From Prevotellaceae bacterium (GTDB taxonomy: Bacteria; Bacteroidota; Bacteroidia; Bacteroidales; UBA932), in the NCBI GenBank assembly GCA_031289415.1, contig JAITPN010000096.1:1-34486 (forward strand): a DNA stretch of 34,486 nucleotides, given 5' to 3'. Both the position numbers and the translations under genes were made by a program. This document shows, one piece after another, positions 3,726 through 34,152 of this stretch. The stretch's first letter is position 1; each line of letters starts with the position of its first letter. The notes beneath the pieces were generated by a model, which did not search any database, had not been told where the DNA came from, and saw only the letters and a program-made list of their open reading frames with translations.

Positions 3726-3798
3726 GCTTTTTAGGTTATTATAACATTACAAATGTAAGCATAAAAAATGAAAAAAATGAAAAAATGTTCAAATCTTG

Positions 3799-3829
3799 TT
3801 TGTAAGTTTAAAAAATGTTACTACCTTTG
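3799..3829 (+). promoter_or_regulatory. Bacteroidetes sigma-A type promoter for rplC (-33 TTTG at 3799-3802, 19-nt spacer, -7 TACCTTTG at 3822-3829)
   Basis: Sequence match to TTTG...TAnnTTTG consensus about 50 nt upstream of the rplC ATG. Lies inside the 65-bp repeat duplicated at 9482..9546. Confidence 0.6.
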
Positions 3830-3879
3830 CAACCCGCTTTTTTATGCGGATAATGATTAAATTATTAAATTACAGATAC

Positions 3880-4503
3880 ATGCCTGGAATAATTGGGAGA
3901 AAAATCGGAATGACGTCCATTTTTGGAAGTGATGGTAAAAATATACCATGCACCGTCATTGAAGCTGGGCCGTGTGTAGTTACGCAGGTACTTACGGAAG
4001 ATAAGAATGGTTATGCCGCCGTACAACTTGCCTATGACGACAAAAAAGAAAAACACACCAGCGCAGGCTTAATAGGCCATTTCAAAAAGGCAAATACCAC
4101 GCCTAAAGGCAAGTTGGCAGAGTTTAAAAACGACTTTGCTAAACCGCTGCAATTGGGTGATGTGATTACCGTAGCTGATGTACTTCATGAAGAAGACTGG
4201 ATTGATGTTACGGGTACTTCTAAAGGAAAAGGTTTCCAAGGCGTAGTTAAGCGTCATGGATTCAGTGGTGTAGGTGGTCAAACGCACGGTCAACACAACC
4301 GTTTGCGCGCCCCCGGTTCAATGGGCGCATCATCATGGCCCTCGCGCGTTTTCCCCGGAAAACGGCTTCCCGGACGGATGGGCGGCGACCAAGTTAAAAT
4401 GTTAAACCTGAAAGTGCTGAAAGTGATTCCCGAAAACAATTTGTTATTGGTGAAAGGATCAATCCCCGGCGCAAAAGGTTCATATCTATTAGTAGAGGAG
4501 TAA
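3880..4503 (+). CDS. rplC: 50S ribosomal protein L3 (start taken at the internal [15 protein letters not shown], not the 3796 ORF-track start)
   Basis: Conserved L3 N-terminus and length (207 aa). The upstream extension of the ORF overlaps the promoter. Confidence 0.93.
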
Positions 4504-4510
4504 ACTGGCA

Positions 4511-5149
4511 ATGGAACTATCAGTATATAAAATAGATGGAAAAGAGTCGGGAAAAAAGATTGTCCTCGACGATACGGTATTCGGCATAGCTCCGAACGAC
4601 CACGCAATTTACTTAGATGTAAAGCAATACTTAGCAAATCAACGCCAAGGCACAAGCAAAACGAAAGACCGCGGCGAAGTGGCTTACAGCACCAAGAAAA
4701 TGGGTCGCCAGAAAGGCGGCGGCGGTGCACGTCACGGCAGCATCAAAGCCAATATTTATGTAGGCGGCGGTCGTGCATTCGGACCCCAACCGCGCGACTA
4801 CAGTTTTAAGTTGAATAAACAATTCAAACAATTGGCTCGCCGCAGCGCACTCTCGCAGAAAGCCAAAGACGACGCGATTACCGTACTGGAGCAATTTACG
4901 ATGGAAGCCCCGAAGACGTCGGAATTTACGACTATCTTCAAAAACCTTAGCATTGACGGTCGTTCGAAAGTGTTGATGGTACTTCCTGAAAATAATAGTA
5001 ATATCTACTTGTCGTCCCGCAACCTGCAACGTGTAAAAGTACTCACTTCGTCGGAACTGACTACTTACGACATTGTGAACGCTACCAAACTGGTGTTGGT
5101 GGACGCCACGGTTGAGGTATTGAATAAACAATTAGGACATAACGCATAA
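4511..5149 (+). CDS. rplD: 50S ribosomal protein L4
   Basis: 212 aa. L4 motifs (QKGGGGARHGS, VGGGRAFGP). Operon position. Confidence 0.93.
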   Translation: MELSVYKIDGKESGKKIVLDDTVFGIAPNDHAIYLDVKQYLANQRQGTSKTKDRGEVAYSTKKMGRQKGGGGARHGSIKANIYVGGGRAFGPQPRDYSFKLNKQFKQLARRSALSQKAKDDAITVLEQFTMEAPKTSEFTTIFKNLSIDGRSKVLMVLPENNSNIYLSSRNLQRVKVLTSSELTTYDIVNATKLVLVDATVEVLNKQLGHNA

Positions 5150-5162
5150 AACCATAAACAGC

Positions 5163-5453
5163 ATGGAAATATTATTAAAGCCATTAATTACCGAAAAAAT
5201 GACGATTCAGGGCGAAAAGTTGAATCATTACGGTTTTATAGTTGACCGCGAAGCCAATAAAATTGACATTAAAAAGGCGGTTGAAGAAATGTACGGAGTT
5301 ACGGTGAAAGAAGTAAACACCATAAACTACCATGGAAAACGCAAAAGCCGCTATACCAAAGCCGGCATACTGACAGGACGCGCCAATCACTTTAAAAAAG
5401 CAATTGTAACGCTTGCCGGAGAAGATAAAATAGATTTTTATAGCAACATTTAA
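5163..5453 (+). CDS. rplW: 50S ribosomal protein L23
   Basis: 96 aa. Operon position and L23-like sequence. Confidence 0.9.
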
Positions 5454-5455
5454 AC

Positions 5456-6280
5456 ATGGCAGTACGTAAATTTAAACCGGTAACACCCGGACAACGACAT
5501 AAAATCATCAGTGCATTTGATGATATCACATGTACGAAGCCCGAAAAGTCGCTACTTGCACCCGTACGCAAATCGGGCGGGCGCAACAACCAAGGGAAAA
5601 TGACAATGCGCTACATCGGCGGCGGGCATAAACGCATGTACCGCATCATTGACTTTTTGCGCAACAAAGACGGCATTAAAGCCACCGTAACAGCTATCGA
5701 ATACGACCCCAATCGCAGCGCACGCATTGCATTGGTACAATATGTCGATGGCGAAAAACGCTACATTATAGCGCCGAATGGGTTAAAAGTAGGACAGCAA
5801 ATTATTTCCGGCACAGGCATTGCGCCCGAAGTAGGCAACGCATTGCCTCTGGGCGAAATTCCTCTCGGAACGATTGTACACAACATTGAACTGCGTCCCG
5901 GACAAGGTGCGGCTATGGCTCGCAGCGCCGGAACTTATGCACAGCTCACATCGCGTGAAGGTACGCATGCCATATTGAAACTGCCTTCGGGCGAAGTACG
6001 CATGGTGCTTGTAACTTGCCGCGCTACGGTAGGCAGTGTATCAAACCCTGACCACAACCTCGAATCGCACGGAAAAGCGGGTCGTAAGCGTTGGTTAGGA
6101 CGTCGTCCGCGCGTTCGCGGCGTAGTAATGAACCCTGTCGACCACCCGATGGGCGGCGGTGAAGGTCGTGCCTCAGGCGGACATCCGCGCTCGCGCAAGG
6201 GCATACCGGCTAAGGGATACAAAACACGTAACCCGAAAAAAACTTCTAAGAAGTTTATTATTGAAAGACGTAAAAAATAA
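5456..6280 (+). CDS. rplB: 50S ribosomal protein L2
   Basis: 274 aa. GGGHKRMYR and C-terminal Gly/His-rich L2 signature. Confidence 0.95.
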
Positions 6281-6301
6281 CCGGATAAACGAGAAAAAAT
6301 T

Positions 6302-6568
6302 ATGAGTCGTTCACTAAAAAAAGGTCCTTATATCTACCCCAGCCTTGAAAAAAAGGTGCTGGAAATGGCAGAAGGTAAAAAGAAAAAAGAAGTGATAAAA
6401 ACATGGTCGCGGGCAAGTGTAATTTCGCCCGACTTTGTAGGACAAACCATTGCCGTGCATAACGGCAACAAGTTTATCCCTGTGTATATTACCGAAAACA
6501 TGGTAGGTCATAAATTGGGTGAATTTGCACCCACCCGAACATTCAAAGGACACTCGGGTAACCGTTAA
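6302..6568 (+). CDS. rpsS: 30S ribosomal protein S19
   Basis: 88 aa. [11 protein letters not shown]-terminus. Confidence 0.93.
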
Positions 6569-6600
6569 ACATTAACAACCGTATAAAATAAAACCTCAAT

Positions 6601-7035
6601 ATGGGAGCTCGTAAAAGAGAAATGGCTGAAAGGCTGAAAGAAGAAAGGAAACAAAAAGCAGTGGCAAAACTGAACAATGTTCCGACCTCGCCCCGCAAAA
6701 TGCGTTTGGTCGCTGATTTGGTAAGGGGGGTTGAAGTAAACCGCGCCTTGGATATTTTAAAATATACCAAGAAAGAAGCTTCGGTTCGTTTGGAAAAATT
6801 ACTCAAATCGGCTATTGCCAATTGGGAAAAGAAGAATGAAGGCGAAAGGAAAGAATTGGAAAACGGAAATATTTGTATTACCCATATTTCCGTAGGGCAA
6901 GGACGTACGCTGAAACGTATCCGCACCGCGCCGCAAGGACGCGCCGCTCGTATTCGCAAACGTTCAAACCACGTAACGATTATGTTGGGTAAAAAAAATG
7001 AATCCGAAAAAGTAACAGTAACAGAGGAGCAATAA
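6601..7035 (+). CDS. rplV: 50S ribosomal protein L22
   Basis: 144 aa. [14 protein letters not shown] motif. Confidence 0.92.
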
Positions 7036-7038
7036 ATT

Positions 7039-7821
7039 ATGGGACAAAAAACAAACCCAATCAGTAATCGTTTAGGAATTATCCGCGGCTGGGAATCGAA
7101 TTGGTACGGCGGTAAAGCATACGCCGGCAAAATTTTAGAAGACGCTAAAATCCGCCAATATCTCACTGTCCGTTTAGCGAAAGCGAGTTTGTCAAAACTC
7201 GTGATTGAACGTACGTTGAAGCTTATTACTGTTACTATTCACTCCGCCCGTCCGGGAATCATCATCGGAAAAGGCGGACAGGACATAGATAAACTCAAAG
7301 AAGAGTTGAAGAAAATTACGAACAAAGAGGTTCAAATCAACATTTATGAAGTGAAACGCCCCGAATTGGACGCGGTGATTGTGTCGAACAACATCGCCCG
7401 TCAGGTAGAAGGTCGCGTATCATACCGCCGGGCTATTAAAATGGCAATGGCTTCGACCATCCGCATGGGCGCTGAAGGGATTAAAGTACTTATCAGCGGA
7501 CGGCTCGGAGGCGCTGAAATGGCTCGCCGCGAAATGTTGAAAGAAGGACGTACGCCGCTCCATACTTTCCGTGCCGACATTGACTACGCATTAGCCGAAG
7601 CCAACACCAAAGTGGGCGTGCTGGGCGTAAAAGTGTGGATTTGCAACGGCGAAGTGTATGGACGTCGCGATTTATCGCCGAATATCGGCTCTTCATCCCT
7701 CAACATCGAAGTAGGCAGCGGCTCTGCGGGCGGCGACCGCCGTAGCGGAGGCTTTGACCGCCGCCGCAATGACCGCGACCGTGGCGGCGACCGTCGCCGT
7801 CGCGACCGTGATAGAAAATAG
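7039..7821 (+). CDS. rpsC: 30S ribosomal protein S3 with about 35-aa C-terminal Arg/Asp/Gly low-complexity tail
   Basis: 260 aa. KH domain region and [13 protein letters not shown]-terminus. Tail [30 protein letters not shown]. Confidence 0.93.
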
Positions 7822-7845
7822 TAAGGAAGTTATGATAAAGAAACG

Positions 7846-7881
7846 AAGGCAGCCTCAGCAATGAAGTTGCCTTTGTTTTTT
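7846..7881 (+). terminator. Intrinsic-terminator-like hairpin after rpsC (8-bp stem AAGGCAGC/GTTGCCTT with one G·U, 12-nt loop, then TGTTTTTT)
   Basis: Stem-loop plus T-run 25 nt after the rpsC stop. Unexpected inside an S10 operon. Confidence 0.45.
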
Positions 7882-8144
7882 CGTTGACAAGTGTTGTGAA
7901 GTGTGAAGAGTAAAGCGTGAAGCGTGTCGTCGTCGTATTTTTCGCCCTGCGAGCGGACGATATAACCTGCTTGCGCCGATTTATAGTGTCTGTTGCGCAA
8001 CAGACACTTGCAATCCGTGCGTTGCTTAGCAAAAAAGAAAAAAGTATGTTTTGTGATATGAATATATTAGAAAGGTGCACGGATTGCAAATCCGCGCGAG
8101 CAGATTGAAAGTAGTGTAGCTTTCTTAATCACCCCTTCGGGGGG

Positions 8145-9125
8145 CTACAACGCCAATACCTGCGCCATTTTGTGTTCCATTTGGTTAATGTCGTTGCGGC
8201 GCGACACGGCTTGCTCAAAAGGAGTATATACAACATCACCGTTTATCTGCCCTGTCATCACATCCGTCGTTCCGTCAAGCAATGCGGTAACGGCAGCGTA
8301 GCCCAACCGGCTGGCAAGCACACGGTCGTTGCAAGTGGGCGAGCCGCCTCGCTGAATGTGTCCGAGCGTAGATACGCGCGTGTCGTATGTGGGTAATATT
8401 TCCTTGACTTTACGGGCAACTTCGGCGGCGTTACCTCCTCCAAAGCCTTCGGCTACGATAATAATGCCCGACGATTTATTTTTGCGCCGTCCGTATTCCA
8501 GATAATGGCATAAATCCTGTATTTCGGTGTCTATTTCGGGTATGAGCGTCGCTTCTGCGCCGGTGGCGATAGAGGTATTGAGGGCGATGAATCCCGAATT
8601 ACGCCCCATGACTTCCACAAAAAATATAATGTTGTGCGAATCGGCGGTGTCGCGGATTTTGTCCACCGCTTCCATAGCGGTGTTGATGGCGGTGTCGTAG
8701 CCAATGGTGAAATCCGTTCCGTAAATGTCGTTGTCAATCGTTCCCGGCACGCCTATCACAGGGAATCCAAATTCCTTGTACAGAAGGGTTGCGCCGCGGA
8801 ACGAACCGTCGCCTCCGATGACTACCAGCGCATCAATGCCTGCTTCTTTCAGATTGTCGTGCGCGATGCTGCGCACTTCGGCTTCGACGAAACGAGGGCA
8901 GCGCGACGATTTGAGAATAGTGCCGCCGCGCGACATGATTTTTGAGACCGAATGACTTTCCATCGGCACAAACTGCTTCTCAAGCAATCCGGTATATCCT
9001 TGCCGGATGCCTACCACTTCCAATTCGTGAAATATAGCGGTGCGCACTACGGCGCGTATGGCGGCATTCATCCCCGGCGCATCGCCGCCCGAAGTTAATA
9101 CGCCTATTTTTTTTAGCTGTTTCAT
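8145..9125 (-). CDS. pfkA: ATP-dependent 6-phosphofructokinase
   Basis: 326 aa. GVLTSGGDAPGMNAAIR and GGDGS, MGR motifs of PFK-A family. Opposite strand to flanking r-protein genes. Confidence 0.9.
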   Translation of the reverse strand: MKQLKKIGVLTSGGDAPGMNAAIRAVVRTAIFHELEVVGIRQGYTGLLEKQFVPMESHSVSKIMSRGGTILKSSRCPRFVEAEVRSIAHDNLKEAGIDALVVIGGDGSFRGATLLYKEFGFPVIGVPGTIDNDIYGTDFTIGYDTAINTAMEAVDKIRDTADSHNIIFFVEVMGRNSGFIALNTSIATGAEATLIPEIDTEIQDLCHYLEYGRRKNKSSGIIIVAEGFGGGNAAEVARKVKEILPTYDTRVSTLGHIQRGGSPTCNDRVLASRLGYAAVTALLDGTTDVMTGQINGDVVYTPFEQAVSRRNDINQMEHKMAQVLAL

Positions 9126-9150
9126 ATTACATTACATTTTTAACCCGACA

Positions 9151-9182
9151 CAAAAATAGAGAAAAGCCTATGATTTTACAAA
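9151..9182 (-). promoter_or_regulatory. Candidate pfkA promoter (minus strand: TTTG, 20-nt spacer, TATTTTTG; about 25 nt upstream of ATG)
   Basis: Consensus match on reverse strand upstream of the pfkA start. Confidence 0.35.
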
Positions 9183-9502
9183 TCGGGGGTTAAAAGATGA
9201 AGATATTTTAACCTAAAATTAAATAAGGAATATGGGTTTTACCACCCGATAGTCATTTCTGAAATTATCATTACTTTATAGTATATGATGATTTGCGTTT
9301 ACGAACTCGCCGCCATTTTATGCCATACACTATAAAAAACACCCATGCACAGCAAACGATGTATCCATTAATTCCGGCTAATGGGTAACCCTGACAAAAA
9401 TCAACGAATTTTTTATGGATTTATTATATATTTAAAAATCAAATGTTTTGTATTATTTTTGTTATTTTCTTGCAAAAAAAGTGAAAAAATGTTCAAATCT
9501 TG

Positions 9503-9533
9503 TTTGTAAGTTTAAAAAATGTTACTACCTTTG
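9503..9533 (+). promoter_or_regulatory. Duplicated copy of the rplC promoter, upstream of rplP (-33 TTTG 9503-9506, -7 TACCTTTG 9526-9533)
   Basis: Part of the 65-bp perfect direct repeat 9482..9546 (= 3778..3842). Confidence 0.6.
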
Positions 9534-9627
9534 CAACCCGCTTTTTCTACATGAAATAGCGTATATAATTAAGATTAAATAAATTAAAGAGAAAACGAAA
9601 CGTAACGCTTATTAAGGATAAAAGACG

Positions 9628-10047
9628 ATGTTACAACCTAAAAAGACAAAATTTAGAAGACAACAAAAAGGTCGGATGAAAGGGATTGCCCACCGCGGGC
9701 ATGAGTTGTCGTTCGGCTCGTTCGGCATCAAAACGCTGGAGGAATGTTGGCTCACGGGGCAGCAGCTTGAAGCTGCCCGTCAGGCGGTGGTACGCTATAT
9801 GAAGCGCGAGGGGCAAATATGGATTCGCATTTTCCCCGACAAACCGTTTACGAAAAAACCCGCCGAAGTGCGTATGGGTAAAGGTAAAGGAGCGCCCGAA
9901 GGGTTTGTCTGTCCTGTTACGCCCGGACGTATTTTGATTGAAGCCGAAGGAGTTCCGTTGGCTGTGGCGAAAGAAGCCTTGCGGCTCGGCGCACAAAAAT
10001 TGCCGGTAATTACTAAATTTATAATTCGCAGAGATTATACAGAATAA
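9628..10047 (+). CDS. rplP: 50S ribosomal protein L16
   Basis: 139 aa. [20 protein letters not shown]-terminus. Confidence 0.93.
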
Positions 10048-10061
10048 AAACGCATTGAATA

Positions 10062-10265
10062 ATGAAAACTACTGAAATACGCGAATTGTCGGTAAAAGAC
10101 TTACAGGAACGCATTGAATCCGAAAAAGCAGCCTATGTGCGCCAACGGCTCAACCATGCCGTGTCGCCCGTAGAAGATACGTCAAAAATCGGCAAAGCGC
10201 GAAAAGACATTGCACGGATGCTCACCGTTTTGAGCCAGAAACAAAAAATAGAAAACGAAAAATAA
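10062..10265 (+). CDS. rpmC: 50S ribosomal protein L29
   Basis: 67 aa. Operon position. Confidence 0.88.
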
Positions 10266-10273
10266 TTTTTCCC

Positions 10274-10528
10274 ATGGAAAGAAATCTTCGTAAAGAAAGA
10301 ATAGGATTAGTGGTAAGCAACAAAATGCAAAAATCAATTGTAGTTGCTGTGCATCGTAAAGTGAAGCACCCTATTTACGGAAAATTCGTAAACAAAACCA
10401 CCCGATTTGTCGCTCACGACGAAAAGAACGAGTGCAGCGAAGGCGATACGGTACGCATTATGGAAACCCGTCCGTTGAGCAAAAATAAATGTTGGCGATT
10501 AGTAGAAATAGTAGAAAAAGTTAAATAA
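10274..10528 (+). CDS. rpsQ: 30S ribosomal protein S17
   Basis: 84 aa. S17 OB-fold sequence. Confidence 0.9.
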
Positions 10529-10530
10529 CC

Positions 10531-10896
10531 ATGATACAACAAGAATCACGCTTACAGGTGGCTGACAACAGCGGAGCAAAGGAAGTGCTTTGCATCCGTG
10601 TGTTGGGAGGGACGCGTCGCCGTTATGCCGGTGTAGGTGATAAAATCGTAGTTGCCGTGAAAAGCGCAATGCCCGGCGGCGATGCCAAAAAAGGGTCTGT
10701 GTCAAAAGCCGTAGTGGTGCGTACGAAAAAAGAAATTCGCCGTGCCGACGGTTCATATATCCGCTTTGACGAAAATGCCTGCGTGCTGTTGAATGCACAA
10801 GGCGAAGTGCGCGGAACACGTATTTTCGGACCTGTAGCCCGCGAATTGCGTGAAAATTATATGAAAATAGTATCATTAGCGCCGGAGGTATTATGA
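10531..10896 (+). CDS. rplN: 50S ribosomal protein L14
   Basis: 121 aa. [17 protein letters not shown]. Confidence 0.94.
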
Positions 10897-11225
10897 GCAA
10901 GACACCACACAAATTACACATTAAAAAAGGCGATACGGTATATGTAAACGCCGGTGACGACCGCGGAAAAACAGGCAAAGTACTGGAAGTATTTCCTGCT
11001 AAAAGCCGTGCGATTGTAGAAGGCATTAATTTGGTAAGCAAACACACCAAGCCGAATGCCAAAACCCCGCAGGGCGGAATTGTAAAGCAGGAATCGACGA
11101 TTCATATTTCAAACCTGCAAGTAGTTGACCCCACAAGCGGCAAACCTACGCGTATAGGTCGCCGTGCGAACGAGGAGGGTAAATTGGTGCGTTACGCAAA
11201 AAAATCGCAAGAGGAGATTAAATAA
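10893..11225 (+). CDS. rplX: 50S ribosomal protein L24
   Basis: 110 aa. KOW motif [20 protein letters not shown]. 4-bp overlap with rplN. Confidence 0.9.
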
Positions 11226-11836
11226 TGGCAAAGAAAGAAGGAGCAAAAGCTACGGGAGGAGTGCAGCAACCTGTACCTGCGGGATATATTCCGGCTCTGC
11301 AAAAGAAATACAAAGAAGAAATTGTTGCCGCTTTGATGAAAGAATTTAGCTACAAATCAATAATGCAAGTACCCCGCCTTGAAAAAATCATCATTAATCA
11401 AGGTGTTGGCGGCGCTGTAAACGACAAAAAACTGATTGAGGTAGCACAAAATGAACTGACAACTATTACAGGACAAAAAGCAATTCAAACATTTTCGAAG
11501 AAAGACATTTCGAACTTTAAGTTGCGCAAAGGCATGCCTATTGGCGTAAAAGTTACGTTGCGCCGTGCAAAAATGTATGAATTTCTTGACCGTTTGGTGG
11601 CAGTGTCATTGCCTCGTATCCGCGACTTTAGGGGGATTTCCGACAAATTTGACGGGCGCGGCAATTATTCATTAGGTATCAAGGAACAGATTATTTTTCC
11701 TGAAATTGATATTGATAAAATCACAAAAATATTGGGCATGGAAATATCCTTTGTAACTACTGCCGGAAACGATAAAGAAGCGTATGCACTGCTTCGCGCG
11801 TTCGGATTACCTTTTAAAAACGCTAACAAAAAGTAA
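11225..11836 (+). CDS. rplE: 50S ribosomal protein L5
   Basis: 203 aa. L5 sequence. Start may be slightly extended. Confidence 0.9.
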
Positions 11837-11839
11837 ACT

Positions 11840-12109
11840 ATGGCAAAAGAATCAATGAAAGCACGCGAAGTGAAACGTGCAAAGTTAGCGGCAAAATATG
11901 CAGAAAAACGCAAAGCGCTGAAAGAAGCCGGCGATTATGTGGGCTTGGCTAAATTGCCAAAAAATGCAAGCCCTGTGCGGTTGCACAATCGTTGTTCGCT
12001 TACAGGTCGTCCAAAAGGATTTATGCGTATGTTCGGCATCAGCCGCATCCAGTTCCGCGAAATGGCAAGCAAAGGCTTGATTCCGGGTATTCGTAAAGCA
12101 AGCTGGTAA
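11840..12109 (+). CDS. rpsN: 30S ribosomal protein S14
   Basis: 89 aa. C-terminal [11 protein letters not shown]. Confidence 0.9.
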
Positions 12110-12189
12110 AAGTAAAGAAATTTAGAAAAAACGAAATATTAATGGATATCGGGTGCTGAAGCACTGAGAAAAAATAAAGAAAAAGAAAA

Positions 12190-12585
12190 ATGACTGATCC
12201 AATCGCAGACTATCTGACAAGAATCCGCAACGCGGTGAGTGCAGGACATAAAGTGGTAGAAATTCCTTCTTCAAAAATGAAGCAGGAACTTACCCGTATT
12301 CTGCACGAAAAAGGCTATATCCTTGCTTATAAAATTATAGAAGGAACGCCTTCGAACGCTATTAAAATAGCGTTGAAATATCATCCGGACACGAAACGTC
12401 CGGCGATAAAAAAATTGCAACGCATCAGTTCGCCCGGTTTGCGGCGATATGTTGATGTTGAAAACATGCCGCGCGTATTAAACGGCTTGGGCATTGCCAT
12501 CATTTCTACATCGAAAGGTGTGATGACTGACAAGGAAGCCAAAGTGCAGAACGTAGGCGGCGAAGTATTATGTTATGTATATTAG
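12190..12585 (+). CDS. rpsH: 30S ribosomal protein S8
   Basis: 131 aa. [15 protein letters not shown]. Confidence 0.93.
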
Positions 12586-12612
12586 AATAAAACGAATAAA
12601 TAAGTTAATTTT

Positions 12613-13173
12613 ATGTCACGAATAGGAAAATTACCTGTAAACCTGCCGCAAGCGGTTACCGTAAAGGTAAACGCGGGAAATGTGGTTGTGGTTAAAGGAC
12701 CGCTCGGTGAGCTTCAGCAAAAAGTAGATGCTGATATTAAAATTACCGCAGAGGGAAGTGTAGTTACGGTAAGCCGACCGACCGACCAGCCCCGTCACCG
12801 CTCAATGCACGGATTATACCGCGCGTTGATTGCCAACATGGTGAAAGGCGTTTCGGAAGGATATACCATTCAGCAAGAGTTGGTGGGCGTGGGTTACCGC
12901 GTAGAAGTAAACGGACAAGTATTGGCGTTCAGTTTGGGCTATTCGCACGATATTCATTTCGAAATTCCGAAAGAAGTGAAAGCGGTTGCCGAAGCGGTAA
13001 AGAAAGGGGCAAACCCTGTGTTGACACTGAAAAGCCACGATAAGCAACTTATCGGGCAAGTGGCGGCAAAAATCCGCTCGTTGCGTAAACCTGAACCGTA
13101 CAAAGGAAAAGGTATTAAATTTGTAGGCGAACAACTTCGCCGTAAAGCCGGAAAATCGGCAAGTGCAAAATAA
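12613..13173 (+). CDS. rplF: 50S ribosomal protein L6
   Basis: 186 aa. MSRIGKLPV. Confidence 0.92.
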   Translation: MSRIGKLPVNLPQAVTVKVNAGNVVVVKGPLGELQQKVDADIKITAEGSVVTVSRPTDQPRHRSMHGLYRALIANMVKGVSEGYTIQQELVGVGYRVEVNGQVLAFSLGYSHDIHFEIPKEVKAVAEAVKKGANPVLTLKSHDKQLIGQVAAKIRSLRKPEPYKGKGIKFVGEQLRRKAGKSASAK

Positions 13174-13189
13174 ATAGGGAGGTAGCGTT

Positions 13190-13552
13190 ATGGCATTAAC
13201 AAAAAGTGAAAGAAGACAACGAATTAAGTATCGTATCCGCAAAGTGATTAGCGGTACGGCGCAACGTCCCCGCATGTCGGTGTTTCGTAGCAACAAATCA
13301 ATATATGTACAATTTATTGATGACGTGGCAGGCGTTACTTTGGCAGCCGCTTCGTCGCACGATAAATCATTGGACGTTGCCGTTAAAGGCAAGCCGGGAA
13401 CAGAAGTGGCAAAGTTGGTAGGTAAATTAGCCGCCGAACGTGCCATTGAAAAAGGTATTACCACCGTAGCGTTTGACCGCGGCGGCTACCTTTATCATGG
13501 AAGAGTAAAAAATTTAGCAGACGCCGCCCGTGAAGGTGGTCTTACATTCTAA
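13190..13552 (+). CDS. rplR: 50S ribosomal protein L18
   Basis: 120 aa. Operon position and L18 C-terminal motif. Confidence 0.9.
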
Positions 13553-13562
13553 ATGACAGATT

Positions 13563-14078
13563 ATGACTACAAGTGTTAAAAAAGTAAAGACAACCGATTT
13601 GGATTTAAAAGAACGTATCGTAGCTATTCGGCGTGTAACCAAAGTAACGAAAGGCGGACGTCATTTTAGTTTTGCCGCTATTATGGTAGTGGGCAATGAA
13701 GATGGCGTAGTAGGCTATGGTCTTGGAAAAGCCGGCGAAATGGCTACTGCGATAGCAAAAGGAGTGGAGGATGCAAAGAAAAATCTGGTGAAGATTCCTT
13801 TGACTAAACGAACCATTCCGCATGAACAAACCGCTAAATTCGGAGGTGCGCAAGTGTTTATGAAGCCCGCAGCCGAAGGGACAGGTGTAAAAGCCGGCGG
13901 CGCTATGCGTGCAGTGTTTGAAAGCGTGGGTATTCACGATGTGTTGGCTAAGTCAAAAGGCTCATCAAACCCTCACAACTTAGTGAAAGCTACGGTGAAC
14001 GCATTGCTTGAACTGCGCGACGCCTATACGATAGCCGGTTTACGAGGCATTCCGATGCAAAAAGTATTTAAAGGATAA
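13563..14078 (+). CDS. rpsE: 30S ribosomal protein S5
   Basis: 171 aa. [16 protein letters not shown]. Confidence 0.93.
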
Positions 14079-14091
14079 GGAGAAAAGAGAG

Positions 14092-14271
14092 ATGGCGAAA
14101 GTGAAAATTACACAAATAAAAAGCAAAAACAGCGCTACCGAGCGCCAGATTGCTACGCTAACCTCGCTGGGTTTGCGTCGGATGCATCAAACGGTAGAAC
14201 GGGAAACAAATCCTGTAACTAACGGTATGATTGAAAAAGTAAGGCATTTGGTAAAAGTAGAAGAAATTTAA
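14092..14271 (+). CDS. rpmD: 50S ribosomal protein L30 (59 aa; below ORF-track length cut-off)
   Basis: Manual translation [59 protein letters not shown] between rpsE and rplO. Confidence 0.85.
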
Positions 14272-14284
14272 GCATAGAACGATT

Positions 14285-14731
14285 ATGAGTTTACACAATT
14301 TAAAACCTGCACAAGGTTCTACACATAAGGAAAAACGGATTGGTCGCGGCGAAGGTTCGGGGCGCGGAGGTACTTCTACGCGCGGACACAAAGGAGCGCA
14401 ATCACGTTCGGGTTATTCGAGCAAAAAAGGCTTCGAAGGCGGTCAAATGCCTTTGCAACGCCGTGTACCTAAATATGGGTTTACCAACAGATCCCGTATA
14501 GAGTACAAAGCTATTAATCTTTCTACCCTACAGTCGTTAATCGAGAAAATTAATGTAACCGACATTACTGTCGGCACGCTGGCTGAAGTCGGTCTGGTGT
14601 CGAAAAACGACCGTGTAAAAATTCTTGGAAACGGAAGTTTAACTTCTGCAATAAACGTAACAGCACATGCCTTTTCAAAATCGGCAATAGCTGCTATTGA
14701 AGCAAACAAAGGCACAGCCACTATACTTTGA
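14285..14731 (+). CDS. rplO: 50S ribosomal protein L15
   Basis: 148 aa. Gly/Arg-rich N-terminal region typical of L15. Confidence 0.92.
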
Positions 14732-14735
14732 AGCG

Positions 14736-16052
14736 ATGAGAAAATTTATTACAACCATACAGAACATTTTCAAGATTGAAGACCTCCGCAAAAGGATAGG
14801 CTACACTGTCTTGCTGCTGCTTGTATATCGCTTGGGTAGTTACGTGGTGTTACCGGGCATTGACCCATTGCAGCTGGAAAGCCTGAAGTCGAGTGCATCG
14901 GAAGGGTTGTTGGGTTTGTTAAACCTGTTTTCAGGGGGAGCTTTCGGTAATGCTTCTATTTTCGCATTGGGCGTTATGCCTTACATCTCGGCGTCTATCG
15001 TTATCCAGTTGCTGGGTATGATGGTTCCGTATTTCCAACGTTTGCAGCGCGAAGGCGAAAGCGGACGCCGGAAAGTAAACCAACTTACGCGCTACCTGAC
15101 CATCATTATTCTGGCTTTGCAAGGTCCGGCTTATATCACGGCGCTGCATAACCAATTGCCCGAAACGGCATTTCTGTTAGGCGGATTTGGTTACAATGTG
15201 TTTGCTACGGTAATCCTTATCGGCGGCACAATGTTTGTGATGTGGCTTGGCGAGCGGATTACCGACCGCGGTATCGGGAACGGTATTTCACTCATCATTA
15301 CCATAGGTATTTTGGCAGACCTGCCCTTTGCCTTTGTGGCTGAAGCCGGTTCGCGATTTAACCAAACTACCGGCGGATTGCTGATGTTTGTAGTTGAAAT
15401 TATCATACTGTTCTTTATCTTTGTAGCTACTATCATGCTGGTGCAAGGTACGCGAAAAATTCCTGTACAATATGCAAAGCGTGTAATCGGCAACAAACAA
15501 TACGGAGGAGTACGTCAGTATATTCCTTTAAAAGTGAACGCAGCCGGTGTAATGCCTATGATTTTTGCGCAAGCAATCATGTTCTTTCCGATGTTGCTGT
15601 CGGGATTCGAAGCCACGAGCGGCATAGCAGTTGCATTCAGTGATTATACAGGATTTTGGTATAACCTTGTGGTTGCCTTTTTGGTGATGGCATTTACTTA
15701 TTTTTACACTGCCGTAACGGTTAATCCAAACATGATGGCGGAAGAAATGAAGAAAAACGGCGGATTTATACCCGGTGTGAAACCCGGTAAAAAAACAGCT
15801 GAATATATTGACTCTGTAATGTCGCGCATTACGTTGCCCGGCTCTATTTTCCTTGCAATAGTGGCTATTATTCCCGCTCTTGCCAGAAACATGGGCATCA
15901 ACGACCAGTTCGCGCGGTTTTATGGCGGCACTTCGCTCCTTATTTTGGTGGGCGTGGTGCTTGATACGTTACAACAAATTGAAAGTCATCTTCTCAATCG
16001 TCACTATGACGGTTTGATGAAGACAGGGCGTTTGAAAGGACGCAACGGATAG
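14736..16052 (+). CDS. secY: Preprotein translocase subunit SecY (start chosen at the MRKFITTIQNIF Met just after the rplO stop, not the overlapping 14697 start)
   Basis: Ten predicted TM segments. SecY-like sequence. Operon position. Confidence 0.9.
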   Translation: MRKFITTIQNIFKIEDLRKRIGYTVLLLLVYRLGSYVVLPGIDPLQLESLKSSASEGLLGLLNLFSGGAFGNASIFALGVMPYISASIVIQLLGMMVPYFQRLQREGESGRRKVNQLTRYLTIIILALQGPAYITALHNQLPETAFLLGGFGYNVFATVILIGGTMFVMWLGERITDRGIGNGISLIITIGILADLPFAFVAEAGSRFNQTTGGLLMFVVEIIILFFIFVATIMLVQGTRKIPVQYAKRVIGNKQYGGVRQYIPLKVNAAGVMPMIFAQAIMFFPMLLSGFEATSGIAVAFSDYTGFWYNLVVAFLVMAFTYFYTAVTVNPNMMAEEMKKNGGFIPGVKPGKKTAEYIDSVMSRITLPGSIFLAIVAIIPALARNMGINDQFARFYGGTSLLILVGVVLDTLQQIESHLLNRHYDGLMKTGRLKGRNG

Positions 16053-16079
16053 AAAGAGAGAAAGGTGTTCTTTGAAAAA

Positions 16080-16850
16080 ATGATAACACTCCGAACCGAC
16101 GAAGAGATTGAGATATTAAGAGAAAATGCACTTTTAGTATCAAAAACTTTAGCGGAAGTGGGGAAACGGATACAACCCGGCGTAAGTACGTTGGAATTGG
16201 ATAAATTGGCTGAAACATTTATCCGCGACCATGGTGCAGCGCCCGGCTTCCTTGGCTACAACGGCTTCCCCAATACCCTTTGCCTGTCGGTCAATGATGT
16301 GGTGGTGCATGGTATTCCTTCGGCGTACCGCCTGAAAGAAGGCGACGTCATTTCAGTAGACTGCGGAACGCGCTACAAGGGATATTACGGCGATTCGGCT
16401 TACACATTTGCCGTAGGCGAAATAAACGAAGACGCGAAACACTTGTTGAAAGCAACAAAAGAATCGCTCTTCAAAGGCATTGCTCAGGCGATAGACGGAA
16501 ACAGGGTAGGCGATATATCGTTCGCGATACAAAACCATGTAGAGCCGTTTGGCTACAGTGTAGTGAGGGAGATGGTCGGACACGGATTAGGGTCGCGCAT
16601 GCACGAAAAACCCGATGTGCCTAATTTTGGGCACAGAGGACACGGAAAGCGGTTGCAAAACGGTATGGTAATTTGTATCGAACCGATGATTAATGCCGGT
16701 ACTAAAGACGTGTTCATGGACGAGGACGGATGGACGCTCCACACACGCGACGGAAAAAAATCGGCACATTATGAATTAACGGTGTGCGTGCGGAAAGGGC
16801 ACCCCGATGTGTTATCAACATTTGAGTTTATAGAAAAAGTGATTAAGTAA
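16080..16850 (+). CDS. map: Methionine aminopeptidase type I (start possibly 16065)
   Basis: Metal-binding residues and pita-bread fold motifs (VVHGIP, DxGxxxxGYxGD, HGxGxxxHE). Confidence 0.9.
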   Translation: MITLRTDEEIEILRENALLVSKTLAEVGKRIQPGVSTLELDKLAETFIRDHGAAPGFLGYNGFPNTLCLSVNDVVVHGIPSAYRLKEGDVISVDCGTRYKGYYGDSAYTFAVGEINEDAKHLLKATKESLFKGIAQAIDGNRVGDISFAIQNHVEPFGYSVVREMVGHGLGSRMHEKPDVPNFGHRGHGKRLQNGMVICIEPMINAGTKDVFMDEDGWTLHTRDGKKSAHYELTVCVRKGHPDVLSTFEFIEKVIK

Positions 16851-16878
16851 GTAAGATTTAAAATTATTATAAGAAGAT

Positions 16879-17097
16879 ATGTCTAAACAGACGGTCATAG
16901 AAAAAGAGGGTACAATAACCGAAGCCTTGTCGAACGCGATGTTTCGCGTGGAGTTGGACAATGGTCATGTGGTTATAGCCCATATTTCCGGAAAGATGCG
17001 GATGCACTACATTCGTATTCTCCCCGGTGACAAAGTTCGTATAGAGATGTCGCCTTATGATTTAACAAAAGGTAGAATTTCATTCAGACACAAATAA
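16879..17097 (+). CDS. infA: Translation initiation factor IF-1
   Basis: 72 aa. S1-like OB fold. Operon position. Confidence 0.92.
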
Positions 17098-17109
17098 AAG
17101 CATACCATT

Positions 17110-17226
17110 ATGAAAGTAAAGGCTTCTATAAAAAAACGCAGCGAAGACTGCAAGATTGTAAAACGGAAAGGGCGTTTGTATGTAATATGCAAAAAAACGC
17201 CGAAATTTAAAATGCGTCAAGGATAA
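17110..17226 (+). CDS. rpmJ: 50S ribosomal protein L36 (38 aa; below ORF-track cut-off)
   Basis: Manual translation [38 protein letters not shown] with zinc-ribbon Cys pattern. Confidence 0.85.
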
Positions 17227-17270
17227 ACGCTTGAAAAATTTATTAATTATTAATTTTTAAGAATTAAAGT

Positions 17271-17651
17271 ATGGCACGTATAGCCGGAGTTGATTTACCA
17301 AAGAACAAACGCGGAGAGATAGGATTGACCTATATCTACGGAGTGGGGCGCAGCACAGCGCAAGACATTCTTCGTACCGCAGGTATTGATTTTGACATAA
17401 AAGTAAAAGATTGGAATGATGAGCAGATAACTGCCATTCGTAATCTTATCCAAGAAAAGGGTTTGAAAATTGAAGGCGAATTGCGCTCATCGGTGCAACT
17501 CAACATCAAACGCCTGATGGATATTGGTTGTTACCGTGGCATCCGTCATCGTTTGGGATTGCCGGTACGTGGGCAAACAACCAAGAACAATGCCCGTACA
17601 CGTAAGGGTAAGAAGAAAACAGTAGCAAACAAGAAAAAAGCAACTAAATAG
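17271..17651 (+). CDS. rpsM: 30S ribosomal protein S13
   Basis: 126 aa. [10 protein letters not shown]. Confidence 0.93.
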
Positions 17652-17660
17652 GAAATAAAC

Positions 17661-18050
17661 ATGGCAAAAAAGACCACAACAACGAAGAAAAAAGTAGTGA
17701 AAGTAGATGCTTACGGACAAGCGCATGTACATTCCACCTTTAACAATGTTATTGTAACCTTGGCAAATAGTGAAGGGCAAGTAATCAGTTGGTCATCGGC
17801 TGGTAAAATGGGTTTCCGCGGCTCGAAGAAAAATACGCCGTATGCAGCCCAAACCGCTGCCTCTGACTGTGCAAAAGTAGCTTTTGACTTAGGGCTGCGT
17901 AAGGTGAAGTGCTATGTGAAAGGTCCCGGCTCGGGTCGCGAAGCGGCTATTCGCCAAATTAATACCGCAGGTATTGAAGTTACCGAAATAATAGATGTTA
18001 CTCCTTTGCCGCACAACGGCTGTCGTCCGAAAGGACGCCGCAGGGTATAA
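17661..18050 (+). CDS. rpsK: 30S ribosomal protein S11
   Basis: 129 aa. S11 sequence. Confidence 0.93.
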
Positions 18051-18127
18051 TAACTCAAAGGTTAAAGCAATAAATAACGCTTAATAATTAAACCCCGGCG
18101 GCAACGGGTTACCAACGGCAAAGAAAA

Positions 18128-18736
18128 ATGGCAAGATACACAGGTCCTACAACAAAAATCGCCCGTAAATTCGGTGAACCTATCTACGGTCCCGATAAAC
18201 ATTATGACCGCAAAGCCTACCCTCCGGGGCAACACGGCTTGGCAAAGAAACGTAAGAAAGTATCGGAATATGGTACTCAATTACAGGAAAAACAAAAAGT
18301 GAAATACACTTACGGCATATTGGAACGCCAATTCCGTAACCTTTTTGTGAAAGCATCGCGTATGCGCGGACGCAAAGGCGAAAACCTTTTGCTGCTGCTC
18401 GAAAGCCGCCTTGACAACTTGGTTTACCGGCTCGGCATTGCACCTACACGCGCGGCTGCCCGCCAATTGGTTACGCATCGCCATATTGTGGTGGACGGAA
18501 AAATATGCAACATCCCGTCGCGTATTATTAAAATCGGCGATACGATTGGCGTACGCGAACGCTCGCAGGCATTGGAAATAATACAGGAAGCAGTTACCGG
18601 TCGCAATAGCAGCAGATATCCTTGGTTAGAATGGGATGGCGCTACGTTTACCGGAAAATTGATCAGCCTGCCCGAACGTACGGAAATCCCCGAAAACATT
18701 AACGAACAATTGATAGTAGAGTTGTACTCTAAATAA
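18128..18736 (+). CDS. rpsD: 30S ribosomal protein S4
   Basis: 202 aa. [17 protein letters not shown]. Confidence 0.93.
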
Positions 18737-18772
18737 AGAATCCCATTAATAACTTTTATACACAAAATAAAT

Positions 18773-19756
18773 ATGGCAATATTAGCATTTCAGAAACCCG
18801 ATAAAGTAATTTTACTTGAAGCAAACGACACATTCGGACGCTTTGAATTCCGCCCGCTGGAACCCGGGTATGGTATTACGGTAGGCAATGCCTTGCGCCG
18901 CATTTTAGTGTCGTCGCTCGAAGGGTACGCCATTACTACAGTGAAAATAGCCGGTGTAGATCACGAATTTGCAACTATCCCCGGCGTGATCGAAAATGTA
19001 GTTGAAATTATCCTTAATCTTAAACAAGTACGTTTCAAACGAATGGTTGATAAGGTTGACGGCGAAAATGTGTCGCTCACCATTGGCGGGCAAGACAAAT
19101 TTACGGCGTATGATATTTCGAAGCAACTCTCGTCATTCAAGGTGTTGAACCCCGACTTGGTGATTTGCAAAAAAGAGCCGTCCGTGAAATTACAGATAGA
19201 ACTCACCGTCGGAAAAGGTCGCGGCTATGTGCCTGCTGATGAAAACAAGCCTGCCGAAGCGCCGTTCGGATTGATTCCCATCGACTCCATTCATACGCCT
19301 ATTAAAAACGTGAAATACACGGTTGAAAACTGGCGCGTGGAGCAAAAAACGGACTACGAAAAACTGGCGCTCGAAATTACTACCGACGGCTCGATACATC
19401 CGAAAGATGCACTGAGGGAAGCGGCAAAGATATTGATTTATCACTTTATGCTTTTTTCCGAAGATAAAATCACGTTTGATATCCCCGGCGAATCGGTTGC
19501 GGATGAATTTGACGAAGAAACACTGCGCATGCGCCAACTGTTGACCACGCGATTGTCGGATATGGAACTTTCGGTACGCGCCCTCAACTGTTTGAAAACT
19601 GCCGAAGTGGATACGCTTGGCGAATTGGTGCGCTTCCAACGCTCCGACCTGCTGAAGTTCCGTAATTTCGGACGTAAATCGTTGACCGAACTTGACGCCT
19701 TGTTAGAGCGGCTGAAACTTAGTTTCGGAATGGATATTGCAAAATATATAATTTAG
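18773..19756 (+). CDS. rpoA: DNA-directed RNA polymerase subunit alpha
   Basis: 327 aa. N-terminal dimerisation domain and C-terminal domain sequences. Confidence 0.93.
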
Positions 19757-19774
19757 ACAAAAGAATAGAAAACG

Positions 19775-20335
19775 ATGAGACATAATAAGAAATTTAACCA
19801 TTTAGGACGGAAAGCGGGACACCGTAAAGCGATGTTGGCAAACATGGCGTCGTCGTTAATTTTACATAAACGTATTGAAACTACCGAGGCGAAAGCAAAG
19901 GCTTTGCGCGTGTATGTAGAGCCTTTGATTACAAAATCGAAAGACGACACTACGCACTCGCGCCGTACGGTATTCAGCTACTTGAAAGACAAAATAGCCG
20001 TGGCGGAATTATTCCGCGCCGTAGCGCCGAAAATAGCCGCCCGCCCCGGAGGATACACCCGTATTTTGAAACTCGGCTTTCGCGCCGGCGACGCCGCCGA
20101 TATGGCGATGATTGAGTTGGTGGACTTCAACGAAGCCGCGTTGGCTGCATCGGGCAAAGGCGGCGCGAAGAAAGCCACTACACGCCGCAGCCGTGCGAAA
20201 AAAACCGCCGCGCCGGCAGCCGTAGCCGAAGCACAAACGCCGACGGTAGCCGAAACGCCCATACCGGTAGCCGAAACCCCCGCAGAACCGGCAACGGAAG
20301 AGGCGACACCGCAAGAGGCGACACCGCAAGATTGA
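19775..20335 (+). CDS. rplQ: 50S ribosomal protein L17 with about 60-aa Ala/Pro/Thr/Glu-rich C-terminal tail
   Basis: 186 aa. [24 protein letters not shown]. Tail contains short tandem nucleotide duplications (ccggtagccgaaac x2, gaggcgacaccgcaag x2). Confidence 0.92.
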
Positions 20336-20363
20336 GATAAAATTTGAATTAATATTTGAAAGA

Positions 20364-20404
20364 GGCTGCCCAAAAAGTAATATTTTTGGGCGGCTTCGTT
20401 TGTC
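20364..20404 (+). terminator. Rho-independent terminator of the r-protein/rpoA/rplQ transcription unit
   Basis: 12-13-bp stem GGCTGCCCAAAAA / TTTTTGGGCGGC, loop GTAATA, then TTCGTTTGT. Confidence 0.6.
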
Positions 20405-31758: not shown

Positions 31759-32109
31759 AGTCAAGATACATTTATTTCAAAAATGGAATTGAAAGCCGAT
31801 GATTTGCTGAGAACGAAAAGATAAATCATATTGTTTGGTAAACTTAAAAACTGTTTAATTTTCATTGAGATTTTTATTCTATTGAGCATAATACAAACAA
31901 AAGCGATTTGAATCATAATTCGTAGTCTTTAGCTAATCGTCGAAAATTTTCCAACCATGCAAAAATTCTTTATACCGTTGATAATCACAGAAATGCGATA
32001 TTAATTCAACATAAATAACTGATATTCAACGCTTTGATTATAAATGTAAACAGTTTCTAATTTTATAAATAAAAATTCGTATCTTTGTACAACCTTATAA
32101 ATAGATATT

Positions 32110-32736: not shown

Positions 32737-34152
32737 ATGACTCCTGCTTTAACAATTATCGTATTTGCTGTCGTATTATTTATTACGTTTTCAGCTATTT
32801 TATCGCGTTACAAACGCTGTCCGTCCGACCGTATTTTGGTGGTGTATGGAAAAACAGGTAAAAACAAAGAGGGCGGGGCTAATTCCGCAAAATGTATTCA
32901 TGGCGGCGCCGCCTTTATTTGGCCCGTGTTTCAAAGCTATCAGTTTTTGAACTTGACGCCCATTCCTATCGAATGTAATTTGACCAACGCCTTGAGTAAG
33001 CAGAACATCCGTGTTGATGTGCCGTGCCGTTTTACGGTAGGCATTTCTACCGACCCCGACAATATGACCAACGCCGCCGAACGGTTGTTGGGGCTATCGC
33101 CTAAAAACATTCAAGACCTTGCTACCGATATTCTGTTCGGGCAGTTACGTTTAGTTATTGCCACGATGGACATTGAAGAAATTAACTCCGACCGCGACAA
33201 ATTCCTGATAAACGTGAGCCAAAATGTAGAACTGGAACTGCGTAAAATCGGGCTAAAGTTAATTAATGTGAATGTAACGGATATCCGCGACGAATCGGGT
33301 TATATCGAAGCATTGGGAAAGGAAGCCGCCGCTAAAGCCATCAACGAAGCCAAGAAAAGCGTGGCGGAGCAAAACCGTTTCGGGGAAATAGGAAAAGCCG
33401 AAGCTGACCGTGATAAGGATATCCGCATTGCCGAGACCGAACGCGACACACGTGTGCGTACTGCCGACGCCAATGCTACTGCCGTAGAGGGTGAAAATAT
33501 TGCCCGCGTTTCCATTGCCAACTCCGATTCGGAACGCCGCGAACGCGAAGCCGAAGCCATGCGCCGCGCTACTGCCGCCGAAAAAGTACAAAACGCCAAA
33601 GCATTGGAAGAAGCGTATGCCGCCGAACAGCGTGCCGAAACGGCTCGCATCGAGCGGGAACGCGCTTCGCAGCAGGCAAACATTATTGTACCGGCTGAAG
33701 TGAATAAGGAAAAAGCCATTATCGAAGCGGAAGCCGAAGCCGAACAACTACGTTGCAGAGCCAAAGGCGAAGCCGATGCTATATTTGCCAAAATGGAAGC
33801 GCAGGCAAAAGGTATCAACGAAATCCTGACGAAGCAAGCTGACGGATTTGGGCAGATTGTGAAAGCCGCCAACAACGATGCTCAGAAAGCCGTATTGCTG
33901 ATGGTGTCCGATAAATTACCCGAACTTGTTCGCACGCAAGTTGAGGCTATCAAAAATATCAAGATTGATAAAATCACCGTATGGGACGGACAAAACAATG
34001 CCAACGGAAAAACGTCCACTGCGAATTTCTTGTCGGGGCTTATGCAGTCAGTGCCGCCCCTAAACGAATTGTTTAATATGGCGGGTATGGAGTTGCCTAA
34101 ATATTTGGGCACAGAAAAAGAATCCCATACCGAAGAAACAACGGAAAGTTAA
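32737..34152 (+). CDS. Flotillin-like SPFH/band-7 family protein
   Basis: N-terminal TM. SPFH domain. Long Ala/Glu-rich coiled-coil (EAEAEAEQLR...), as in FloT/YqiK. Confidence 0.85.
   Translation: MTPALTIIVFAVVLFITFSAILSRYKRCPSDRILVVYGKTGKNKEGGANSAKCIHGGAAFIWPVFQSYQFLNLTPIPIECNLTNALSKQNIRVDVPCRFTVGISTDPDNMTNAAERLLGLSPKNIQDLATDILFGQLRLVIATMDIEEINSDRDKFLINVSQNVELELRKIGLKLINVNVTDIRDESGYIEALGKEAAAKAINEAKKSVAEQNRFGEIGKAEADRDKDIRIAETERDTRVRTADANATAVEGENIARVSIANSDSERREREAEAMRRATAAEKVQNAKALEEAYAAEQRAETARIERERASQQANIIVPAEVNKEKAIIEAEAEAEQLRCRAKGEADAIFAKMEAQAKGINEILTKQADGFGQIVKAANNDAQKAVLLMVSDKLPELVRTQVEAIKNIKIDKITVWDGQNNANGKTSTANFLSGLMQSVPPLNELFNMAGMELPKYLGTEKESHTEETTES

Follow-up and report, generated by a model that had tools for sequence, protein, structure and literature searches.

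In bacteria, gene conversion homogenises dispersed repeats of the translation machinery, as described for the ribosomal RNA (rRNA) operons and for tufA/tufB. The leader of the Escherichia coli S10 operon, in turn, is known for L4-mediated attenuation and for translational control. The consensus of the Bacteroidetes primary sigma factor (sigma-ABfr) consists of a -33 TTTG and a -7 TAnnTTTG with an AT-rich spacer between them (Bayley et al. 2000, cited in Ryan et al. 2020, PMC7366714); in B. thetaiotaomicron, 81% of the primary transcription starts are preceded by it (Ryan et al. 2020, PMC7366714). For the large ribosomal-protein operon cluster, a pattern of small insertion followed by full disconnection has been reported in other phyla (Brandis 2021, PMC8046335). 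Here, we analyzed contig JAITPN010000096.1 (34,486 nucleotides (nt)) of a metagenome-assembled genome (MAG) that carries the NCBI label 'Prevotellaceae bacterium'. This whole contig, referred to as the window, holds a ribosomal-protein gene cluster in which a 65-nt putative promoter element occurs twice without a single difference, once upstream of rplC (copy A) and once upstream of rplP (copy B). Comparison with related genomes suggests, with a probability of roughly 80%, that this identity reflects recent gene conversion between two old promoters, of which copy A would drive rplC-rpsC and copy B rplP-rplQ.

Searching the window for the exact 65-mer returned positions 3778-3842 and 9482-9546, both on the + strand and with 0 mismatches, as a first-pass annotation made from the sequence alone had stated, whereas a 65-mer match was obtained in 0/100 dinucleotide-preserving shuffles of the window. 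A repeat finder extended the match without gaps to 71/72 identical positions (3771-3842 versus 9475-9546, one mismatch), and this 72-nt match is the sole long dispersed repeat in the ribosomal-protein region. The flanking 30-nt blocks are 20-47% identical compared to ~30% expected from the composition of A+T-rich spacers. As flank identity is therefore near chance, the edges of the repeat are sharp on both sides, and the earlier description of diverging flanks around a recently homogenised segment holds. The two copies are as follows:

3771-3842, + strand: copy A, putative promoter of rplC, comprising A-tracts, -33 motif, spacer, -7 motif, and C-rich start region
9475-9546, + strand: copy B, putative promoter of rplP, a 71/72 match to copy A and identical to it over 9482-9546

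Copy A comprises A-tracts at 3771-3777 and 3780-3785, a -33 TTTG (3799-3802) within CTTGTTTGTAA, a -7 TACCTTTG (3822-3829), and the C-rich start region CAACCCGC (3830-3837). In copy B, the -33 TTTG lies at 9503-9506 and the -7 TACCTTTG at 9526-9533. The spacer between both motifs is 19 nt long in either copy, with an A+T content of 84%, so that motifs and spacing are positioned as initially annotated. The distance from the first base of the -7 box to the downstream gene is 58 nt for rplC and 102 nt for rplP, and both copies are intergenic and face the first gene of their block. Transcription probably starts at ~3833-3838 for copy A and at ~9537-9542 for copy B; the repeat would then extend from about -60 to a few nt beyond the expected start, i.e., over the whole promoter. 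Both copies carry the -7 TAnnTTTG and the -33 TTTG with an AT-rich spacer of ~19-21 nt, and both are conserved in relatives. Each copy is therefore predicted to be a complete sigma-ABfr-type promoter. Like the minimal sigma-ABfr consensus, the element has both motifs in exact form, intergenic and correctly oriented before the first gene of each unit; unlike it, the element has A-tracts further upstream, a -33 extended to CTTGTTTGTAA, and, behind the -7, the C-rich CAnCCC. The full pattern TTTG-N18-21-TAnnTTTG is present at 4 sites in 34.5 kb, compared to ~1 expected by chance, and all 4 are intergenic and face the adjacent gene (copies A and B, one site before pfkA, and one before a DUF456 gene). 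No further intergenic -7 motif was found on the + strand inside either ribosomal-protein block.

To place the two copies in a phylogenetic context, we drew on searches with PfkA and L3 and their encoding contigs, a 21-mer scan of species-representative genomes, and a metagenome scan with a generalised pattern. Together, these yielded ~40 related loci (labels such as L001 denote individual loci). The element precedes rplP in L001, L002/L008, and L003, where it is 90-95% identical to the window, and precedes rplC in L006, L007, L009, L010, L039, L040, and L041. In L004, diverged versions precede both genes; L014, L016, L023, L027, L029, L034, L035, and L037 each have a diverged version before one of them. 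Copies are thus kept at the two places in >10 related contigs. In the 21-mer scan, which covered 185,579 species genomes, the element occurred solely upstream of rplC or rplP. As the element is found at both positions across a clade of related uncultured Bacteroidales, the second copy was not newly made in this genome, and the duplication is old.

Divergence between genomes contrasts with the identity within the window. While copies A and B show 0/65 differences, the window differs from rplC orthologues at 7-9/65 and from rplP orthologues at 4-6/65 positions, and the rplC-type and rplP-type sequences of the relatives differ from each other at 5-10/65. The rplC-type carries ATA[G/A]CTATC (7 contigs) and the rplP-type TT[A/G][C/T]TACC (3 contigs), with no pair proven to come from one genome. 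Only the spacer and the two 'nn' nucleotides inside the -7 box vary. Within the near clade, two blocks are invariant in both types, namely a 29-nt upstream block formed by the A-tract and the extended -33, and an 18-nt block that reaches from the TTTG of the -7 into the start region. Core sites 32-33 read TA in both copies of the window and CC in both types of the sister group, a concerted pattern that no scenario explains without one or more transfers from copy to copy. Taken as a case of concerted evolution, the locus shows paralogues that are closer to each other than to their orthologues, sites that pre-exist with type-specific differences, and non-homologous flanks combined with conserved anchors.

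Under gene conversion, the conserved outer blocks of 29 and 18 nt would be long enough to anchor homologous recombination, and a short conversion tract would homogenise the variable centre between these anchors, resulting in 65/65 identity. Anchors of 18-29 nt are near the lower limit for homologous recombination. The locus resembles the concerted evolution of rRNA operons and tufA/tufB in that paralogues within a genome are identical while orthologues between genomes differ, in that unrelated flanks bound the tract, and in that the copies are direct repeats a few kb apart on one replicon. It differs in the size and nature of the converted unit, which here is a non-coding promoter of ~65-72 bp and not a gene of at least 1 kb, with only ~20 nt of variable centre between the 18-29-nt anchors. 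The most likely direction of conversion is rplP to rplC, since the window sequence is nearer to the rplP-type and shares the 5' AAAAAA[A/G]TG with the rplP copies of L001 and L002. The mechanism of recombination, its direction, and any selective benefit are read from these comparisons, as is the expected consequence that both halves of the cluster would be transcribed at the same promoter strength and with the same regulatory input.

Several points weigh against recent conversion in the direction given. The distant rplC promoters of L037 and L004 also carry a window-like AAAAAATGTT in the spacer, which leaves the direction insecure, and the whole comparison draws on a short sequence with ~10 variable sites. 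Consensus, position, and conservation are the grounds on which promoter activity and start sites are predicted. Moreover, there is no sister genome in which both copies demonstrably come from one genome: L039/L042 are one 25-kb contig that ends 367 nt upstream of pfkA, before the rplP promoter, and the pfkA contig of Cd354_bin100 is cut short at the wrong end for this comparison. L040 and L002 stem from the same sample, with protein accessions ~3,000 apart, and differ at 7/65 positions, their membership in a shared MAG being unproven. Within these bounds, the feature is best read as an ordinary sigma-ABfr promoter at two loci, probably kept identical by gene conversion; both are of known kinds, and nothing established is overturned. 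The locus illustrates how two halves of a severed ribosomal-protein operon may be co-expressed through the same promoter module, and it represents small-scale concerted evolution of a regulatory element, not of a gene, after an operon split.

Of the alternatives, an origin without any recombination fares best, although we consider it improbable. Intense purifying or convergent selection on a very strong promoter could account for the outer blocks AAAAAATGTTCAAATCTTGTTTGTAAGTT and CTTTGCAACCCGCTTTTT, which do not vary between paralogues or across the near clade, and the same architecture recurs at the rpsL promoters of other Bacteroidales. However, selection of this kind does not explain why the 19-nt spacer and the 'nn' of the -7 vary freely among relatives (4-9 differences from the window and 5-10 between types) yet are identical in the window, nor why sites 32-33 changed jointly in both paralogues.

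Marginally less probable still is the scenario proposed in the first-pass annotation, in which the rplC promoter was recently copied to rplP in a single event that rescued expression after an insertion of pfkA. Pfam scans and the positions of open reading frames (ORFs), which upheld the annotated identities of rplC, rpsC, pfkA, and rplP, gave the following layout around the two copies:

3880-7821, + strand: transcription unit 1, rplC-rplD-rplW-rplB-rpsS-rplV-rpsC (7 genes), tightly packed with gaps of 2-32 nt
7838-7886, + strand: intrinsic terminator after rpsC, identified by folding; a long hairpin (7838-7881) whose 3' arm ends in a T6 run
8145-9125, - strand: pfkA, 6-phosphofructokinase (PF00365, E = 3e-110), the sole gene in the gap between rpsC and rplP
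9151-9182, - strand: pfkA promoter by consensus, TTTG-N20-TATTTTTG, 26 nt upstream of the pfkA start and without overlap with copy B
9628-20335, + strand: transcription unit 2, 22 genes from rplP to rplQ
20363-20404, + strand: terminator-like hairpin after rplQ (GCTGCCCAAAAA / TTTTTGGGCGGC), closing unit 2; read from the sequence and unscored

Perfect identity between unrelated flanks would fit a single copying event, and pfkA, which is transcribed counter to the ribosomal-protein genes, does separate rpsC from rplP, with a terminator following rpsC. That rplP needs a promoter of its own, as the annotation implied, is supported by this layout. The recency of the insertion is not. Throughout the clade, at 75-85% PfkA identity, pfkA is found within or next to the gap between rpsC and rplP, and, judged by this distribution, the pfkA gap is ancestral to the clade and not a recent insertion. 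The comparison with relatives that the annotation had recommended showed both the gap and the second copy across the clade. A member of the promoter family precedes rplP in every relative examined, down to ~75% PfkA identity and including the distant L004, L014, L016, L023, L027, and L029. Both the break and pfkA therefore date far back, and at no recent time did rplP lack a promoter. Furthermore, the window sequence is nearer to the rplP-type than to the rplC-type orthologues, and copy B runs directly into a leader whose orthologues are the rplP leaders of the relatives. An rplC promoter that was duplicated to a site before rplP does not agree with these data; of the two origins originally offered, recent duplication or gene conversion, the comparative data favour gene conversion between pre-existing promoters. 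Very improbable, finally, are two further origins, namely an artefact of assembly or binning, such as collapsed reads or a chimeric contig, and a small promoter-bearing mobile element. The window is a metagenome-assembled contig, and consensus errors can create identical short repeats. An artefact is nevertheless unlikely because each copy adjoins a leader orthologous to those of independently assembled relatives, and because each of the two positions is occupied by the element in many contigs from other samples. In addition, judging by the names of related MAG contigs (k119_...), the assembly k-mer probably exceeded the 72 nt of the repeat. Against a mobile element stand the confinement of all related copies to rplC and rplP and, in the window, the lack of terminal inverted repeats, of target-site duplications, of an inverted-repeat pair involving the copies, and of a third copy.

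In unit 1, the L3 gene starts at 3880 and the S3 gene spans 7039-7821. Unit 2 begins with the L16 gene (9628-10047) and reads rplP-rpmC-rpsQ-rplN-rplX-rplE-rpsN-rpsH-rplF-rplR-rpsE-rpmD-rplO-secY, followed by map-infA-rpmJ-rpsM-rpsK-rpsD-rpoA-rplQ. Up to position 3725, the genes are on the minus strand and none is ribosome-related. rpsJ is not located upstream of rplC, either in the window or in the relatives. The ancestral str-S10-spc-alpha supercluster is broken twice in this lineage, between rpsJ and rplC and between rpsC and rplP, and each fragment is headed by one copy of the promoter element. Due to the absence of rpsJ before rplC, the rplC promoter is secondary too, and neither of the two promoters is the original one. 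The terminator directly after rpsC makes rplC-rpsC a closed transcription unit and shields pfkA from antisense read-through; its A-rich 5' arm could also allow bidirectional action. A sigma-70-style promoter and terminator scan was uninformative for Bacteroidetes promoters and missed the rpsC terminator that folding revealed.

Among the relatives, the gap between rpsC and rplP contains extra genes that differ by genome (SusC/D, DUF362/DUF6599, a C39 peptidase, and small ORFs). Beyond pfkA, L041 carries proBA and not rplP, other genes follow rpsC in L006 and L007, and the two cluster halves are fully separated in some genomes. On the other side, the genes ahead of rplC are unrelated and change from each lineage to the next. 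Two other Bacteroidales contigs, L025 and L032, show a str unit that ends rpsL-rpsG-fusA-rpsJ and is followed by non-ribosomal genes (L025, 7820-8200, with transposase-like ORFs; L032, reverse complement, ~6398-6703 onward). Unrelated neighbours of rplC and str units terminated by rpsJ together indicate that the break between rpsJ and rplC is also old and widespread. Directly after rpsJ, at 8164, L025 carries a consensus promoter whose start region is C-rich. The pattern described for other phyla (Brandis 2021, PMC8046335) is similar in that a small pfkA insertion lies between cluster parts here, while more insertions or full separation are seen elsewhere. It differs in that the breaks fall inside the equivalent of the E. 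coli S10 operon (rpsJ|rplC and rpsC|rplP) and not between operons, and in that the lineage belongs to the Bacteroidales, outside the coverage of that study.

We also considered whether the repeat could act as RNA. Two small hairpins are located near the 5' ends of the leaders:

3834-3849, + strand: rplC-leader hairpin CCGC / GCGG (window z = -2.75)
9539-9561, + strand: rplP-leader hairpin CGCU.UUUC / GAAA.AGCG, thermodynamically weak and without statistical support

In both, the 5' arm lies inside the repeat (mostly so for the rplP leader) and the 3' arm in the unique flank; such straddling of the repeat edge could be the reason why similarity ends there. The rplC-leader hairpin also occurs in relatives. 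Since the stems are short, show no covariation in the relatives, and are mostly non-significant when compared to shuffles, a conserved leader RNA structure was dropped as a candidate. An Rfam scan of the whole window (E ≤ 1) placed no family near either copy and returned two sub-threshold matches, at 17235-17303 and 31802-31855. Only ~5-10 nt of the repeat are expected to be transcribed. With no RNA family and most of the repeat presumably untranscribed, the shared part would act at the DNA level. Like the E. coli S10 leader, the element heads a block containing rplC-rpsC, but the window copies have no Rfam leader match and rpsJ is absent from the block.

Two further observations concern unit 2. 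The first of the sub-threshold Rfam matches (17235-17303), just upstream of rpsM, is a weak one to the Alpha-operon ribosome-binding-site element RF00140 (21.7 bits versus a gathering threshold of 38; E = 0.48). In the rplP leader (9590-9627), the last ~30 nt before the start codon are conserved in L001, L002, and L003 (ACGTTACGTTAAACGT..AAAAGACA ATG); this stretch, in which a small hairpin is possible, may be a translational operator of the newly independent rplP unit.

The promoter type extends beyond rplC and rplP. Scanning metagenomes with the pattern CTTGTTTGTAA-N6-AAA-N7-TAnCTTTGCA identified 23 loci. The gene downstream of the match was rpsL, the head of the str unit, in 15/23 (other Bacteroidales), rplP in 6/23 (L015 by sequence similarity only), rimP-nusA in 1/23, and an unidentified gene in 1/23. 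Directly after the -7, at positions that the scan pattern leaves unconstrained, CAnCCC was present in ~10/12 ribosomal-protein promoter lineages compared to 1/20 other consensus promoters from the same loci, as counted by eye (Fisher p ~1e-5, a value that overstates independence because the lineages are related). This suggests a recognisable type of ribosomal-protein promoter that comprises those of rplC and rplP and is shared with rpsL of other Bacteroidales. In copy A, the A-tracts (3771-3785) and CAACCCGC after the -7 are possible counterparts of the A-tract UP element and the G+C-rich discriminator that mark stringent or growth-rate-controlled promoters in the E. coli sense.

A further, doubtful step would be that, in this clade, a single dedicated cassette drives every unit headed by rpsL, rplC, or rplP, consisting of A-tract, CTTGTTTGTAA, AT-rich spacer, TAnCTTTG, and CAnCCC start region, with CAnCCC as the Bacteroidetes counterpart of a stringent or growth-rate discriminator. 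Repeated conversion would then not be neutral but favoured, as it keeps output equal, and equal output would replace the stoichiometric coupling lost when the operon was split. Speculatively, the rpsL promoter may have been the source of the copies now in front of the other fragments. The signature formed by extended -33, extended -7, and CAnCCC, which the comparison defines as specific to ribosomal-protein units in Bacteroidales, could guide the study of growth-rate control in a phylum with promoters unlike the E. coli model, as well as the choice of strong native promoters for the engineering of Bacteroidetes.

Regarding other parts of the locus, the spacer of ~250 nt that separates the rpsC terminator from the pfkA 3' end (7890-8140) is strongly structured. 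Folding of 7815-8150 gave z = -7.1, and the spacer contains a perfect palindrome, GTGTCTGTTGCGCAACAGACAC, at ~7988-8009 and a second hairpin at 8077-8097. It had no match in Rfam and could represent a small RNA, an element resembling repetitive extragenic palindromes, or extra terminators. In the window, a Band_7/flotillin-like gene (~471-475 amino acids) follows 12 kb downstream of the cluster (32737-34152), and a gene of the same family lies directly upstream of rplC, on the same strand, in the distant relative L004 (7124-8551), which hints at local reshuffling around the cluster. Downstream of unit 2, a heptanucleotide array comprises 13 copies of ACCGCAC (20600-20691) and is followed by six tandem 41-nt units (20744-20991), each of them internally palindromic (GGGGATTTATTCCCGGAACTTCCGGCAAGATTTCCCCACGT). 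Both arrays immediately precede ORF 20753-23116 or overlap its 5' end. This ORF encodes a surface protein with BACON and Listeria-Bacteroides repeat domains and itself contains 216-nt repeats. Together, the two arrays may form a copy-number-variable control region that resembles those of phase variation.

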